NCBI GenBank assembly: GCA_018652955.1
Contig: JABIBA010000013.1
Span: forward strand, 164,253-228,252
Direction of reading: 5' to 3'
Length of the DNA stretch: 64,000 nt
Source of the DNA: Candidatus Peribacter sp.
GTDB lineage: Bacteria > Patescibacteriota > Gracilibacteria > Peribacterales > Peribacteraceae
The translations under genes were made by a program, and so were the position numbers. Below are positions 43,136 through 47,875 of this stretch, one piece after another (position 1 is the first letter of the stretch; each line of letters opens with the position of its first letter). The notes beneath the pieces are model-generated. The model saw nothing but the letters and a program-made list of their open reading frames with translations, had not been told where the DNA came from and searched no databases.

Positions 43136-43294
43136 TTAGAAAACGGTATAGATGAAGGGTGCCAAAGCAGACCCTTGAGCGAAGACTAAGATCAGTCCTA
43201 AGAGAACGATCATAATAAGCATAGGTAGTAGCCACCACTTCTTGCGGACTTTAAGAAATTTCCAGAGCTCGGAAAATATTGCGAGTTTGCTCAT
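43136..43294 (-). CDS. DUF5989-like small membrane protein
   Basis: From ATG 43294: MSKLAIFSELWKFLKVRKKWWLLPMLIMIVLLGLILVFAQGSALAPFIYTVF, which matches the remembered DUF5989 pattern (..LWxFLKxRKKWWLxP...PFIYTxF). ATGA overlap with the upstream M50 gene. Confidence 0.6.
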   Translation of the reverse strand: MSKLAIFSELWKFLKVRKKWWLLPMLIMIVLLGLILVFAQGSALAPFIYTVF

Positions 43295-43959
43295 ATAAGT
43301 GCGTACATAAGACCTAAAAACGGAGCCATGATAATCGAAATCCACATGCTTAGTACCGGAAGTCCAAAGGCACGACCTGCAACGATCAGTCCCAACAAAA
43401 TAAACGGTCCTTTCTGCATAAATTGCTGATACTGATATTCGTATTCATACGGCAAGAAGATACGAATGATCTTACTTCCATCGAGAGGGGCTATTGGCAG
43501 GAGGTTAAATGCCATCAATACAAGATTGATATGAATGATGTCACCAAGAAGCTCTGCAATAAAGCTGATAATTACGGGTTGGTTGTTTGGAGCGATCAAG
43601 GCTCCTGTGACTGCGAGTACCTCTGCTTTCATTCCAAAGAGAAGCGCAAGCGCGAATGCTCCGAATGCAAGGATGATATTGCTGAGAGGTCCTGCAAAGG
43701 CCACGATCGCACTGTCGCGTATGGCGTGCTTAAAGTAGCGAGGGTCTACTGGAACTGGCTTTCCCCATCCAAATCCTACTAGGACAAAGAGAACTGTTCC
43801 AACAGGGTCTAGGTGTGCGAGGGGGTTGAGAGTCAGCCTTCCATCGTACTTGGCTGTAGGGTCTCCTAATTTAAAGGCTGCATATCCGTGTGCCCATTCG
43901 TGTACGGCTACTGCTATTAAGATAGCAATAATAAAGGTAGGGGAGAGGAATGGGACCAT
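43291..43959 (-). CDS. M50 site-2 protease family zinc metalloprotease
   Basis: HEWAHG (HExxH) in a TM helix and NLLPIAPLDGSKI (NxxPxxxLDG). ATG 43959 is preferred over TTG 43980. Confidence 0.8.
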   Translation of the reverse strand: MVPFLSPTFIIAILIAVAVHEWAHGYAAFKLGDPTAKYDGRLTLNPLAHLDPVGTVLFVLVGFGWGKPVPVDPRYFKHAIRDSAIVAFAGPLSNIILAFGAFALALLFGMKAEVLAVTGALIAPNNQPVIISFIAELLGDIIHINLVLMAFNLLPIAPLDGSKIIRIFLPYEYEYQYQQFMQKGPFILLGLIVAGRAFGLPVLSMWISIIMAPFLGLMYALI

Positions 43960-44066
43960 GTACAGGGCAGGATAGGGCAAAGCTCCTTTAAGGGGAACAA
44001 AGGATTGTCGTAAATCCTCATAATCTATTTGACCTAAATCACTCTAATCCGTAGGATTTCCCCGAA

Positions 44067-44276
44067 ATGGCACGCAAATGCAGCAAAACAGGCAAGAGAA
44101 CTTCTTCAGGTCAAACCCGAAGTAAGTCTATGCGTTCTACTAAAAGGACGTATAAGCCAAATATTCAAAAGAAGAGAGTATTTGACCCTGCAACTGGTGA
44201 ATACAAGACTATCAAGGTAGCAGCGTCTTACTTGCGCACCTTGGCTAAGAGAATGCAGGAAGGAAAGAAGATCTAG
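44067..44276 (+). CDS. rpmB: 50S ribosomal protein L28
   Basis: MARKCSKTGKRTSSGQTRSKSMRSTKRTYKPNIQKKR is diagnostic. Confidence 0.9.
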   Translation: MARKCSKTGKRTSSGQTRSKSMRSTKRTYKPNIQKKRVFDPATGEYKTIKVAASYLRTLAKRMQEGKKI

Positions 44277-44962
44277 TATCCCTGATATTCATTCTGGATA
44301 TTCTTGATACAGACTCTTTTGTCGTTACCGTCCACAATATCACCACATTTCTCTTTAATAAGATCTCGAGATCTGCTGAGGTTTCTTCGCAAACCCTGAG
44401 GAGAAATGAAGTCCACAGGAGTGTTTTCTGATAGACGGTTTCTGCGAGCAGGTTGAGTAACCTGTTGTGTTCTTCGTGTGCTGCTGGAACCCCTTAGGCA
44501 CTGGAGCCTCTCATTCGTTGTTTCTTTTCCACGGCATTCATCACGCCTATTTTTAGCTGCCCTAGATCGAGTGCGCTTGTTGTATACTCGCTGGTTTCCC
44601 TGAGGAATGTTTGCTTGAGCATCTCGAATACACGCTCTTCGCTCTTGAGTGGTAGGTAATATTCCACAGCGCTCTCCTCGTTGCTCTGTGTTGTGTTCTA
44701 CGTAGTTTCGTTTAATAGGTGATGCTAATCCTCGAATAGATTTGCGGTACTCCTGCATGCATGTACGCCTGTCGTTAGCATTTTTTTCATGAATACAGGT
44801 TGTCTTTAATACATCACGTGCACGAGAAATACTTCGCTTGAATCCTCTCGGTGAGCTATTGCCAACAGAACCAAAATGAATTGCAGCTTGTGCAGGTGGA
44901 ACTGCGCTGACGAAGAGTGCAAATACGGCAGTTAGAGCAATGATCGATCGAAAGAATTTCAT
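44273..44962 (-). CDS. secreted basic protein with four C-x11-C repeat modules
   Basis: Signal peptide MKFFRSIIALTAVFALFVSAVPPAQA. Modules CIHEKNANDRRTC, CGILPTTQERRAC, CRGKETTNERLQC, CGDIVDGNDKRVC. Confidence 0.55.
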   Translation of the reverse strand: MKFFRSIIALTAVFALFVSAVPPAQAAIHFGSVGNSSPRGFKRSISRARDVLKTTCIHEKNANDRRTCMQEYRKSIRGLASPIKRNYVEHNTEQRGERCGILPTTQERRACIRDAQANIPQGNQRVYNKRTRSRAAKNRRDECRGKETTNERLQCLRGSSSTRRTQQVTQPARRNRLSENTPVDFISPQGLRRNLSRSRDLIKEKCGDIVDGNDKRVCIKNIQNEYQGY

Positions 44963-45044
44963 GAAAGAAGGAGGAAGGTCAGATGTAGTATACGCTTCTT
45001 ATATGTAAAAAGTATTTGACGTAGTGAGATGTTTCACAGTTTGC

Positions 45045-45446
45045 CTAATTATCAATCGCTCTCCTGAATTCTTTAATCTCAGATCTTTTCTTTTTTTCCT
45101 CGAGCATTTTCTCTTTTGACTTGCGCGATCTTCGCTGTTTTTGTTTTTGGATCTTGTGTCGCTTTTGTCCTATTTCTGACTGCTTCCCTTTTTTGTGTTC
45201 TTCTACTTTTACTACGAGTAATTCCCACGCTTCTTTACGGTTACGCAGAAGTCCTTTGTGGTGATGGTATCGAACATCAATATCAGTAGGCTCATGATGT
45301 AGCTCCACGCAGTTGGTGGACTTGTTAACGCTCTGTCCTCCGTGCCCACTACCACGCGTAAAGCGTTCTTCGACATCTTCGGGATTAAATTTGATCTCTT
45401 TGGCAATTACTTGGAACTTGTGGCCGATTTCTATGGGGAAGTTCAT
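45045..45446 (-). CDS. arfB: ArfB-type peptidyl-tRNA hydrolase (GGQ domain + basic C-terminal tail)
   Basis: RGSGHGGQSVNKSTNCVELHH GGQ block plus a K/R-rich tail. ATG 45446 is supported by an extended -10 box 6 nt upstream. Confidence 0.8.
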   Translation of the reverse strand: MNFPIEIGHKFQVIAKEIKFNPEDVEERFTRGSGHGGQSVNKSTNCVELHHEPTDIDVRYHHHKGLLRNRKEAWELLVVKVEEHKKGKQSEIGQKRHKIQKQKQRRSRKSKEKMLEEKKKRSEIKEFRRAIDN

Positions 45447-45452
45447 GTGTGC

Positions 45453-45461
45453 ATAGTAGCA
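45453..45461 (-). promoter_or_regulatory. extended -10 TGcTACTAT, 6 nt upstream of ATG 45446 (leaderless-type)
   Basis: Reverse complement of atagtagca at 45453-45461, spacer gcacac. Confidence 0.45.
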
Positions 45462-45532
45462 GATCAGAAAAAGACGGGTAGCTCGTGCCAACCCGTCTCT
45501 AACTGTTTCCCCAATAGTCTTTTCTGTATCAA

Positions 45533-46243
45533 TTAGTTTTGTGACTGCTCACGTGCTGCCTCTCGTACACCAAAGACGCATTCACGTAGCTCTTCATTGT
45601 CATCAATCTCTAAGCAAGTTCTCAATTCTGCTCGAAGGTCTGCACTGGTATGGATACCACCACGACGCCTTCGATTTTGGAATCTGTTAAATGCTTTTGG
45701 GTGCTCTTCTTGGAATTCACCACGAATAGTTCCACGTGCTTCCTTAGTACATGCGCGCCACTCGTCAGTGTTTTCACGTTCGCCACATGTTTCTACAATA
45801 TTTGAACGAAACTTGTGACCAATCTTTTGTCCACGACCTCGATGCTCTGGCATCTCAAGACCGTTTTCATTAAATACTTCTTCGGCACATGTCTTGGCGG
45901 CCTCGTGGTCACCAGCGTTATCTTCACGACATGCCTTGAGGTCTTCACGTACATCCTCTGGGATGTCCTGCTTCTGTCCGTCGTGTTGTCCACGACGTTG
46001 TCCACGGCGACCGTGGCCTTCTGGCTTCTCAATACCGTACTGTGCAAAGACTGCATCAGCACATGCTTTGCGGTCTTCTCGTTCTTCATTGTTATCACGA
46101 CACGCCTCAAGAGCAGTTCGTACTGCTTGGCGGTCTGTATCATCGAGGTCTCCAAATGGACCTTGAGCTCCAGCTAGAGGAGCGACTGCGAGGGTGAGTC
46201 CACCCATAAGGGAAAGGGATAATAGTCGTTGTGCGGTAGTCAT
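45533..46243 (-). CDS. secreted charged protein with four C-x11-13-C repeat modules (paralog-like of 44273..44962)
   Basis: Signal peptide MTTAQRLLSLSLMGGLTLAVAPLAGAQG (start ATG 46243). Modules CRDNNEEREDRKAC, CREDNAGDHEAAKTC, CGERENTDEWRAC, CLEIDDNEELREC. The first two units are followed by ..VF..G.E.PE.(H)RG(R)GQ. Confidence 0.55.
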   Translation of the reverse strand: MTTAQRLLSLSLMGGLTLAVAPLAGAQGPFGDLDDTDRQAVRTALEACRDNNEEREDRKACADAVFAQYGIEKPEGHGRRGQRRGQHDGQKQDIPEDVREDLKACREDNAGDHEAAKTCAEEVFNENGLEMPEHRGRGQKIGHKFRSNIVETCGERENTDEWRACTKEARGTIRGEFQEEHPKAFNRFQNRRRRGGIHTSADLRAELRTCLEIDDNEELRECVFGVREAAREQSQN

Positions 46244-46413
46244 ATATAAAGGGGTAAGAAGTAGAAATGACATTTGCACTGTCGGGGTATATGACGGACG
46301 AACTTCGGAACTCTTACAAAAATTACAAATTATAGCTCTAAACAGGTATTTAGAAGGAAATCACTTTCTTCTCAGAGTTTCTATGTAAGAATAGGTAGGT
46401 CTATACGTCATAT

Positions 46414-46944
46414 ATGCCGATGACTATCAAAAGCCACCCTGGGGCCGATGCCGATTTTGCCACTGCGTACGATGAGTTCGCTGATGCAATTTTTCGTCAT
46501 TGTTGTTACAGATGCTTTGATAGAGAACGAGCAAAGGAATTGATGCAGGAGGTATTTATGAAAGCGTGGGATTATCTCGTTGCTGGGAAAGATATCGATA
46601 ACGTTCAAGCGTTCTTATATAGAACTGCCAATAATATTTTGGTTGATGAAGCACGCAGAGCAAAAAAGAGAACAGTAGTTTCGTATGAAGATATGGAAGA
46701 GAGCGGTTTTGAAATTGAAGGAGAGGACGGAAGAGATCAGGGGCGTGTCTTTGATGCGAAAGCTATTGCACAAGTGCTTCATGAATTAGAAGAGCCTTAC
46801 AGAGCTGCCATTATCATGCGGTACATAGATGAGTTATCTCCTAAAGAGATAGCAGAGCTCTTAAATGAAACTGCCAATGTTGTTTCTGTTCGCCTTAATA
46901 GAGGCATGAAAATGTTACGTACGATTCTTGCGACCTATGGATAA
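46414..46944 (+). CDS. ECF-type RNA polymerase sigma-70 family factor
   Basis: Region 2 (AKELMQEVFMKAWDYL) and region 4 HTH (LSPKEIAELLNETANVVSVRLNRGMKML). Confidence 0.88.
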   Translation: MPMTIKSHPGADADFATAYDEFADAIFRHCCYRCFDRERAKELMQEVFMKAWDYLVAGKDIDNVQAFLYRTANNILVDEARRAKKRTVVSYEDMEESGFEIEGEDGRDQGRVFDAKAIAQVLHELEEPYRAAIIMRYIDELSPKEIAELLNETANVVSVRLNRGMKMLRTILATYG

Positions 46945-47875
46945 ACTTACCAAGCAATTCTTCGGCGATGCAAAGCGTATGCAACTCTCCTCTCAGGAGA
47001 AGGCACTGCTATGGCAGGGGATCTCTACCTTCGCAAGTGCAAAGCAGATCAGTTTAAACTCGCTCGAAAAAGCAGAAGGCTTTGAGGCGATTGCCGCACA
47101 CATGCGTAAGAATCCACTAGAAGAGACTGCGACTGTAGCACTGTTTAGCTGGATGCATTTCCATAAGCTAACAGCCAGTGTTCTTATTGCTCTTATTATT
47201 GTTGGAGGAGGTGGAGGTGGTGTGGCATATGCTTCACAGGCAGCAGTTCCTGGGGATACGCTTTATTCTATAAAGGTTGATGTTACTGAGCCGCTAATAG
47301 ATGCAGCACTTTCTTTTGATCCTGAGCGAAGGGCAGAGTGGGGAAGGCGTAGAATTAAGCGTCGCTTAAAAGAAGTCGAACATCTTTCTTCTACAGAAGA
47401 GTTCACTCCCGATAGACGTGCACGTTTGGAGGAGCGCATAGAATATCGTATGGCAAAACTGCAGGAGCATCTGGATCGTGTCCCAGAGGATCACCGTGTT
47501 GTCATGCAAGATCGTGTGGATGATGTGATGATGCGGCATCAAGAATTTCTTATAAAGATAGAGGATGGAGCGGTGAGCATAGAAGAAGTACGGGCATTTA
47601 ATGATCATGTTGGGGGAGTACGCAATCGTGCACGTGAGAAGTGGGAGAGGAAAGCTCCACCACCTATGATAAATCGTGAGCATGTACCAGAAGAGATTCG
47701 CAAAAAAAGAGAAGAATTGGGGCGTCCAATAGACCGAATGCCACCTCCTCACGAGAGGAAACTGGACCGACTCGATAGTAAATTGCCCCTAAAACACCCA
47801 TTGCGCAAGGGCAGAGATGCACAGGGTGAACGTGAAAAAGCACCTCGACCACCTCGTCAGGGGCAGCATCGATAA
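46937..47875 (+). CDS. single-pass membrane protein, putative anti-sigma factor
   Basis: Overlaps the sigma gene stop. Cytoplasmic N-terminus, TM LIALIIVGGGGGGVAYA, then an extracytoplasmic helical/charged domain starting PGDTLYSIKVDV. Role inferred from position. Confidence 0.5.
   Translation: MDKLTKQFFGDAKRMQLSSQEKALLWQGISTFASAKQISLNSLEKAEGFEAIAAHMRKNPLEETATVALFSWMHFHKLTASVLIALIIVGGGGGGVAYASQAAVPGDTLYSIKVDVTEPLIDAALSFDPERRAEWGRRRIKRRLKEVEHLSSTEEFTPDRRARLEERIEYRMAKLQEHLDRVPEDHRVVMQDRVDDVMMRHQEFLIKIEDGAVSIEEVRAFNDHVGGVRNRAREKWERKAPPPMINREHVPEEIRKKREELGRPIDRMPPPHERKLDRLDSKLPLKHPLRKGRDAQGEREKAPRPPRQGQHR

Follow-up and report, generated by a model that had tools for sequence, protein, structure and literature searches.

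Envelope-stress systems induce CpxP and Spy, exported hairpin proteins of the LTXXQ type that serve these same systems; CpxP acts as a feedback inhibitor of CpxA, and Spy is an ATP-independent chaperone (PMC6737893). Among extracytoplasmic function (ECF) sigma factors, ECF281 and ECF290 have a PF13801 protein at position +2 and ECF291 includes CnrH, and neighborhoods of ECF281/290/291 in which PF13801 proteins occur have been interpreted as systems for heavy-metal stress (PMC7826278). In Phocaeicola vulgatus, deletion of the anti-sigma gene cirZ mainly raised the expression of its partner sigma gene, of a spy-like gene on the same transcript and of two neighbors (PMC13114119). Here we analyze a locus of Candidatus Peribacter sp. 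(contig JABIBA010000013.1), located in a window of 64,000 nt that constitutes the whole stretch of DNA under study. The locus encodes two secreted proteins, here called A and B, which are built from modules with one Cys pair each, as well as an ECF sigma factor and a candidate membrane anti-sigma factor. We lean towards the view, without great assurance, that B is an exported disulfide-hairpin protein and a target of this sigma factor, with a chaperone or feedback role resembling that of Spy and CpxP, and that A is a later duplicate.

Like Spy, CpxP and ZraP, A and B are highly charged proteins, with predicted export and predicted all-helical hairpins. B would also share with them the induction by a neighboring envelope-stress system, as suggested by the promoter motif it has in common with the sigma gene. 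Some orthologues of B open module 1 with the motif LTDEQR, and Cys-free relatives of the module match the LTXXQ and Metal_resist models. In contrast, A and B themselves match neither of these Pfam models, are predicted to contain three or four short hairpins on flexible linkers rather than one long, hooked, dimerizing hairpin, and carry one Cys pair per hairpin, while the putative regulator is an ECF sigma factor and not a two-component system. The locus resembles cirYZ-spy and ECF281/290/291, including CnrYXH, in having an ECF sigma factor that apparently controls its own gene, a membrane anti-sigma factor and what looks like a minimal regulon, in which a small exported helical-hairpin protein would be the principal target. 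However, B is divergent and has its own promoter copy instead of occupying position +2 of the operon (in the genus g24 it is co-directional and upstream). The anti-sigma ectodomain is of the DUF5667 type and not zf-HC2, RskA or CnrY, B has no PF13801 match, the partner protein is a putatively disulfide-bearing tandem repeat, and the host is a small-genome bacterium of the Candidate Phyla Radiation (CPR). A literature search on DUF5667, and on LTXXQ proteins in combination with ECF and anti-sigma factors, returned nothing relevant.

Results

Two copies of an ECF-type motif face B and the sigma gene

The 170-bp spacer between B and the sigma gene contains the sequence TGTAAGA-N15-CGTCAT twice, with one copy facing each gene. 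This motif resembles classical ECF promoters in having two blocks at a fixed spacing and a CGTC-type -10 element; Bacillus subtilis sigma-X recognizes TGTAAC-N17-CGAC and sigma-W TGAAAC-N16-CGTA. Both copies are kept in nine divergent orthologous spacers, the remaining sequence of which has diverged or is split by a 560-bp insertion. The B-side motif stands at a constant distance from the B start codon in the loci examined, including those with B inverted. Such inversions occur in genus g24 (loci L027, L029, L030, L031 and L034), where B, sigma and anti-sigma genes are co-directional. In these five loci B and the sigma gene each retain TGTAAGA-N15-CGTCT at unchanged distances upstream of the respective ATG (about 70 nt for B and about 30 nt for sigma).

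The exact motif is found three times in the source genome (1.2 Mb, 99% complete) and not at all in five shuffled versions. Four genus-mates with the sigma gene contain it twice each, at the sigma-side and B-side sites, and two near-complete genus-mates lacking the sigma gene have no exact site. A genome of another genus (G424, genus g234) has a single exact copy on the sigma side and a B-side copy with one mismatch. Genome-wide, sites with one mismatch amount to noise (6 observed versus 7.2 expected). One exact site, in G534, was discarded as a regulon promoter; no open reading frame (ORF) follows it and it looks like a chance occurrence. The third exact copy in the source genome lies outside the window (G000:C8:85439-85466, minus strand), 8 nt upstream of a 32-codon ORF with a single transmembrane (TM) segment (MSRDTRNVGYAFVTSLVLIVIAAYVPVYMLSL), which may be a third member of the regulon. 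This site is not exact in the genus-mates.

Only 2 nt separate the sigma-side -10 element (CGTCAT) from the ATG at 46414, which is followed by a second ATG at 46420, and in nine orthologous loci the start codon is located 2-12 nt past the element. Given this short distance, the sigma mRNA is probably leaderless. From the arrangement of the motif copies we infer that the sigma factor regulates its own gene and has B as its main target; the predicted starts of transcription and the assignment of the motif to this sigma factor likewise come from comparative sequence.

The motif is not present upstream of A. Instead, the arfB-A spacer contains a different conserved block, recognized in seven orthologous spacers that were compared by eye and not machine-aligned. 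In the genomes examined that have no sigma gene, the block is either present (L005 and L040) or degraded (L036 and L039); it may represent A's own promoter or operator. The search proposed at the outset, for an ECF-type promoter upstream of both genes, thus gives an exact motif match for B, whereas A has the other block.

The Cys residues of each module are gained and lost as a pair

Both ORFs encode a signal peptide followed by exactly four Cys pairs, as originally described, and the spacings proved exact when recounted. In A the pairs are 56/68, 99/111, 143/155 and 206/218 (spacing x11 four times), and in B 48/61, 105/119, 153/165 and 210/222 (x12, x13, x11 and x11). No Cys is found outside the four pairs in either protein. 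The signal peptides were judged by reading the sequence; that of A (MKFFRSIIALTAVFALFVSAVPPAQA, followed by A) and that of B (MTTAQRLLSLSLMGGLTLAVAPLAGA, followed by QG) both have a Sec-type appearance with an AxA-type cleavage site. The description of A as very basic and B as acidic was also accurate: A has a pI of 10.75 (47 K+R versus 21 D+E) and B a pI of 5.43 (38 K+R versus 47 D+E). The best-conserved stretch of A is an Arg-rich segment, ISPQGLRRNLSRSRDL, and the linkers of B contain His residues (EGHGRRGQRRGQHDGQ and PEHRGRGQKIGHKF).

A search of 5.8 billion proteins returned 15 clusters of B-type and 10 of A-type homologues. In both sets, each of the eight Cys columns shows no or almost no variation, so that the conservation of the Cys spacing expected at the outset is found. 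Several orthologues of B lack module 2, indicating that the number of modules varies; relatives carry between one and four. Hence "exactly four" describes A and B and is not a rule of the family.

To follow the two Cys positions across the family, 561 modules from 170 proteins were mapped on one module profile; note that related sequences are not independent. Cys occupied both columns in 203 modules and neither column in 356. Only 2 modules had Cys in column 2 alone, and none had it in column 1 alone. Where Cys was absent, column 1 had L (188) or M (169), and column 2 had A in most cases (268). With one exception, proteins were either all-Cys or all-non-Cys. The Cys residues were most often separated by 11 residues (117 modules), less often by 12 (49) or 13 (31), and 67 of the 74 Cys-type proteins had an even Cys count. 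Paired gain and loss is the pattern expected of a structural disulfide that replaces a hydrophobic helix-helix contact, and it is hard to square with Cys residues acting as independent metal ligands.

Three exported Thioredoxin_4 (DsbA-like) proteins with CxxC motifs are encoded in the source genome, two lipoproteins and one membrane-anchored protein. Cys counts in the source genome were even versus odd in 72 versus 42 predicted exported proteins and in 280 versus 293 cytoplasmic proteins (Fisher p=0.006, a rough test). The bias of exported proteins towards even counts supports oxidative folding outside the cell; the logic of this parity test is reportedly that of Dutton et al. 2008. Taken with the structural model described below, the Cys pattern makes one disulfide per module the most likely state of A and B.

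AlphaFold2 predicts separate short hairpins

AlphaFold2 (AF2), with an alignment as input, modeled B as four separate short hairpins joined by low-confidence or disordered linkers (pLDDT 74.8, pTM 0.32). The predicted helices comprise residues 35-51/55-69, 96-108/113-126, 141-153/160-180 and 201-211/216-235, and each Cys pair spans both helices of one hairpin. The first Cys is located in the last turn of helix 1 (e.g., C48 in helix 35-51) and the second 5-7 residues into helix 2 (e.g., C61 in helix 55-69). The model of A has a pLDDT of 60, with modules 1, 3 and 4 predicted as helix-loop-helix. The suggestion that each module forms a Cys-bridged helical hairpin is thus consistent with the models, for all Cys pairs of B and for three modules of A. 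A single long hooked hairpin of the four-helix type was not seen in the B model.

Helix-loop-helix units with disulfides are also known from mitochondrial CHCH proteins (twin CX9C), plant alpha-hairpinins (CX3C pairs) and fungal Cin1, the last of which is, like B, a secreted tandem-repeat protein. These have two disulfides per hairpin, with the pairs within each helix, whereas the modules of A and B have one Cys per helix in a C-x11-13-C arrangement near the loop. The best Foldseek likeness of B to a disulfide-hairpin peptide, VBP-8 (6o3q), was not significant (E=7). The resemblance to CHCH proteins, alpha-hairpinins and Cin1 is probably convergent.

The module is related to Cys-free LTXXQ-type repeats

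An exhaustive search of 1.84 billion representative proteins with the B-family profile matched 232 proteins (clusters) at E<=1e-3, including 95 at E<=1e-10. About half of the 232 are short Cys-type proteins like B. The rest are longer secreted, Cys-free proteins (median 346 aa) with 3-6 copies of the repeat LTxEQRxxLxxxxxELRxxGAxREEIxxAVxxxLxxWGIExPE, in which Gly/Arg-rich linkers connect the tandem modules. In the hmmsearch alignments, B modules 1 and 2 match the repeat in register all the way from LTxEQ to GIExPE. The Cys-free LTxEQ...WGIExPE proteins of bacteria bearing the type IX secretion system (T9SS) thus have module-for-module sequence homology to B and are often encoded beside an ECF sigma gene. 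They differ from A and B in having L/M and A at the Cys positions, in their greater length and in belonging to double-membrane lineages.

Pfam models were counted on 96 Cys-free proteins, with a threshold of E<=0.001 for Metal_resist and LTXXQ. Metal_resist (PF13801) matched 65 of them (best E 1.7e-17), DUF3106 matched 33 and LTXXQ (PF07813) 27; the Por_Secre_tail T9SS sorting domain was present in 52. One relative without Cys comes from candidate division KSB1 (OQX87242.1, unannotated). Among 66 Cys-type relatives, 4 matched Metal_resist at E<=0.1 and 10 showed weak matches to Cin1_N (PF20738); A and B showed none to the latter. Module 1 of B in the window reads DLDDTDRQ, where orthologues P0004, P0008, P0009, P0011 and P0012 have LT(D/E)(D/E)QR. 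The LTXXQ motif is not found in modules 2-4 of B or anywhere in A. On this sequence homology, we treat the Cys module as a derivative of the widespread Cys-free LTXXQ-type repeat. The module, which could not be recognized in the original prediction, thereby acquires relatives that are matched by the Metal_resist and LTXXQ models. As a separate observation, on two unrelated contigs (L064:3749-3985 and L065:3739-3984) a small DUF5659 gene directly precedes a Cys-free, T9SS-tailed repeat protein, a pairing that may be conserved.

A and B are remote paralogues with different distributions

BLASTP aligned A and B at E=0.001 over single modules. When the A family was compared with the B family by hhalign, the modules paired one to one with a probability of 95% (E=2.7e-8). 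These alignments support the proposed paralogy, with A and B as remote paralogues. No further paralogue was detected in the source genome by hidden Markov model search.

The distribution of the genes was surveyed in 200 genomes of the same GTDB family (84 genera) and in 401 genomes across the class. The B profile matched 19 family genomes in 7 genera and 4 of the class-wide genomes. Strong matches to the A profile were confined to the genus of the window (g1), in 5 of its 8 genomes, with two weak matches in other genera. This pattern suggests that A is a genus-restricted paralogue of B. Note that in G410, from another genus, A's slot between L28 and arfB is filled by a distinct secreted protein that is rich in Ser/Thr and Lys and contains two Cys pairs (x10 and x12; L037:5857-6381, minus strand).

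B adjoins the sigma/anti-sigma pair in all 15 loci with enough flanking sequence. The syntenic block has the order prfB, a 56-aa histone-like ORF, anti-sigma, sigma, B, arfB, L28 and an M50 protease. In three genus-mates and in metagenome contigs, the sigma, anti-sigma and B genes are gone together while A is kept. One such locus, in G239, preserves a degenerate remnant of B consisting of the last module only (L036:5401-5775; LRAELRACLEIDDNEELRECVF); sigma and anti-sigma genes are deleted, and A and arfB are intact. Joint loss may reflect a single deletion event and thus carries little weight by itself. Outside the syntenic block, at two unrelated loci in other genera (L046 and L050), a paralogous sigma/anti-sigma pair is directly followed by the gene for a secreted Cys-pair protein. 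The contigs of three Cys-free relatives were examined; two of these relatives are no more than about 1.5 kb away from an ECF sigma gene, and one Cys-free relative sits behind a MacAB-TolC pump. After another paralogous sigma/anti-sigma pair, in G429, we noted a secreted protein with a different Cys-rich repeat (CGNxxxExGEECD...; L059:1991-2446, minus strand).

The proposed linkage to the ECF pair in other genomes therefore holds for B, in adjacency as well as in the shared motif, but not for A, which persists without the sigma gene and has the other upstream block. Similarly, only B is directly upstream of and divergent to the sigma gene; A lies 1.3 kb beyond, behind arfB.

Gene layout

The coordinates of the features are collected in Table 1. 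The source organism is an uncultivated bacterium with Candidatus Peregrinibacteria as its nearest named relatives. Its ECF sigma factor, one of four proteins of the sigma-70 family in the genome, has regions 2 and 4 only, and the downstream gene for a membrane anti-sigma candidate overlaps the sigma gene by 17 nt, which is the arrangement of an ECF module. The TM segment of the anti-sigma candidate corresponds to approximately residues 82-103 (read from the sequence), and its extracytoplasmic domain is helical and free of Cys. Orthologues carry PF18915, and the candidate itself showed no match to zf-HC2, RskA or CnrY. The idea that B is a decoy related to the anti-sigma ectodomain was rejected, as hhalign gave a probability of 0.5%.

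Table 1. Features of the A/B locus and their positions in the window
Feature	Position	Strand	Description
M50 (site-2 protease family) gene	43291-43980	-	
Protein A gene	44273-44962	-	229 aa; secreted, very basic; four C-x11-C modules, predicted helical hairpins
Pyrimidine-rich tract 5' of A ATG	44971-44980	-	CCTTCCTCC
Conserved block, arfB-A spacer	44985-45043	-	ACTGTGAAAC-N8-ACGTCAAATACTTTTTACA-N10-GTATACT
arfB-like peptidyl-tRNA hydrolase gene	45045-45491	-	RF-1 domain PF00472 (2.1e-19); GGQ present; basic tail
Protein B gene	45533-46243	-	236 aa; secreted, acidic, highly charged; four predicted helix-loop-helix modules, one Cys pair each
Pyrimidine-rich tract 5' of B ATG	46250-46262	-	CTTCTTACCCC
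ECF-type motif before B	46291-46318	-	TGTAAGAGTTCCGAAGTTCGTCCGTCAT; exact match; predicted 5' leader roughly 40 nt
Same motif before sigma gene	46384-46411	+	TGTAAGAATAGGTAGGTCTATACGTCAT; exact match
ECF sigma gene	46414-46944	+	176 aa; Sigma70_r2 (7.5e-7) and Sigma70_r4_2 (1.3e-12); regions 2 and 4 only
Anti-sigma candidate gene	46928-47875	+	One TM segment; DUF5667 at 6.3e-5, below cut-off

In the window arfB stands between B and A, and all three genes are on the same strand; in genus g24 the orientation of arfB is not that of B. The true start of arfB is probably the ATG near 45446. No terminator-like site was predicted in either spacer (B-arfB or arfB-A), and read-through across the three genes is therefore possible. 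Just 5' of their ATGs, A and B have conserved pyrimidine-rich tracts in the place of the purine-rich Shine-Dalgarno (SD) sequence; these tracts are like the anti-SD itself and not its complement. The M50 and anti-sigma genes are 2.4 kb apart in every syntenic locus. The M50 product could process the anti-sigma factor; since the M50 gene belongs to another operon, this nearness may be mere synteny.

Discussion

The anatomy and conservation of the modules, the paired covariation of their Cys residues, their homology to Cys-free repeats and the shared motif with its distribution are the observations from which the following model starts. The modules of A and B would be short helix-loop-helix units on flexible, charged linkers, and would derive from the LTxEQ...WGIExPE repeat that occurs in secreted proteins outside this phylum. 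A disulfide between the end of helix 1 and early helix 2 would replace the L/M-A hydrophobic contact of the Cys-free relatives and would be made by the exported DsbA-like oxidoreductases. B would be the main target of the adjacent ECF sigma factor besides the sigma operon itself, and in most relatives the only one. According to this model, the DUF5667 anti-sigma factor is inactivated by an envelope insult and releases the sigma factor, which then drives transcription of B and of the sigma operon from the two copies of TGTAAGA-N15-CGTCAT. B would then be exported and oxidized and, by analogy with Spy and CpxP, might hold or shield damaged envelope proteins and/or feed back on the anti-sigma ectodomain. 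A would be a later, very basic duplicate with another upstream block that does not depend on the sigma factor. For B, the originally proposed membership in an envelope-stress regulon is a reasonable reading. The alternative of surface signaling offered at the same time is not borne out, as nothing points to a system of the FecI type.

Several results weigh against this model. Sigma homologues are present in 184 of the 200 family genomes and B in only 19, indicating that most such sigma factors work without B. Most cases of B/sigma adjacency belong to one conserved block, so that adjacency alone counts for little. Neither DsbB nor VKOR was found in the source genome to reoxidize the DsbA-like proteins. 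No Pfam model matches A or B at E<=1, and the same Cys-free repeats that match Metal_resist and LTXXQ also draw spurious matches to other helical models, NPA and WHEP-TRS; the Pfam link thus partly reflects composition. When E. coli CpxP, Spy and ZraP were compared directly with the module profiles, only the LTXXQ helix aligned and only with the Cys-free profile, which reached both LTXXQ motifs of CpxP and Spy at about 8 bits, while the Cys-type profile gave no alignment with CpxP or Spy. In view of these weak or absent alignments and the spurious matches, we do not take A and B as members of the CpxP/Spy family. A search of PDB sequences with the B profile returned nothing at E<=10, and Foldseek with the full B model found nothing significant in the PDB (best E 0.74) and no match to Spy, CpxP or CnrX. 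The Foldseek result is expected for a string of independent small units and is a weak test.

A different function for the Cys pairs would be metal binding, with B (and A) as CnrX/ZraP-like extracytoplasmic metal sensors or buffers, Cys thiolates as ligands for Cu(I), Zn or Cd, and the ECF pair as a metal-stress switch. Metal_resist is the best Pfam match on the Cys-free relatives, a MacAB-TolC pump stands in front of one of them, the linkers of B contain His, and ECF281/290/291 systems with PF13801 proteins are read as responding to heavy metals (PMC7826278). However, the linker His residues are not conserved, and an isolated hairpin that offers two thiols, but neither His nor Met nor Glu as a conserved neighbor, makes a poor metal site. 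In 356 modules the positions hold L/M and A, which are core-packing residues and not ligands, and both Cys come and go strictly together; the exported DsbA-like proteins and the even-Cys bias further favor oxidized pairs. We therefore regard a metal-binding role as unlikely. A and B might also be structural or adhesive surface proteins of an episymbiont that bind to the host or wall, with inherited synteny and the motif serving as the operator of some other regulator. The whole block from prfB through the histone-like ORF, sigma, B, arfB and L28 to M50 is indeed syntenic across the family, A has a strong positive charge while B is acidic, A is retained where the sigma gene is missing, and T9SS sorting tails occur in 52 of the 96 Cys-free relatives. 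Yet the motif is ECF-like and faces each gene at a fixed distance even after inversion of B, the number of its copies per genome follows the presence of this sigma factor, and at unrelated loci further Cys-pair proteins stand next to paralogous sigma/anti-sigma pairs, all of which renders such a surface role quite improbable.

A may deserve an explanation of its own, as a secreted polycation that binds polyanions (wall polymers, membranes or extracellular DNA) or acts on neighboring cells, unrelated to stress signaling. Its pI of 10.75 with 47 K+R in 229 aa, the high conservation of the Arg-rich segment, the conserved upstream block that is its own with no dependence on the sigma factor, and the Lys-rich two-pair protein in the same slot of G410 are consistent with this possibility. 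On the other side, A has no homologue of known function, its AF2 model reaches a pLDDT of only 60 and the charge argument is generic; we consider this explanation unlikely. A more specific variant of the envelope-stress model would make the circuit a dedicated extracytoplasmic thiol-redox sensor, in which B that is reduced, unfolded or titrated away alters the state of the DUF5667 anti-sigma ectodomain. We view this variant as a distinctly long shot. If true, B would fold only once its four disulfides have formed, and a near single-gene regulon would report and repair failures of oxidative folding at the surface of a cell without periplasm. The disulfide-stapled, LTXXQ-derived hairpin would then constitute an unannotated domain family specific to Peregrinibacteria.

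In conclusion, returning to B as the putative envelope-stress target of the ECF sigma factor, the locus adds a CPR case to the modules of "ECF sigma plus Spy-like protein" and is not a new kind of system. What is new compared to the known ECF/Spy-like circuits is the CPR host, the DUF5667 anti-sigma factor, the divergent promoter copy, the near-minimal regulon and the array of predicted one-disulfide hairpins that database models do not match. The locus also points to an unannotated domain, a helical hairpin with one disulfide in which a hydrophobic contact would have been exchanged for a covalent bond, in a lineage with exported proteins that are exposed to the outside medium. In small-genome CPR bacteria regulators are scarce, and hardly any of the circuits they form are understood. 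The circuit proposed here would be about minimal, consisting of an ECF sigma factor with its anti-sigma factor and, in essence, a single target gene, and its promoter can be read from comparative sequence.

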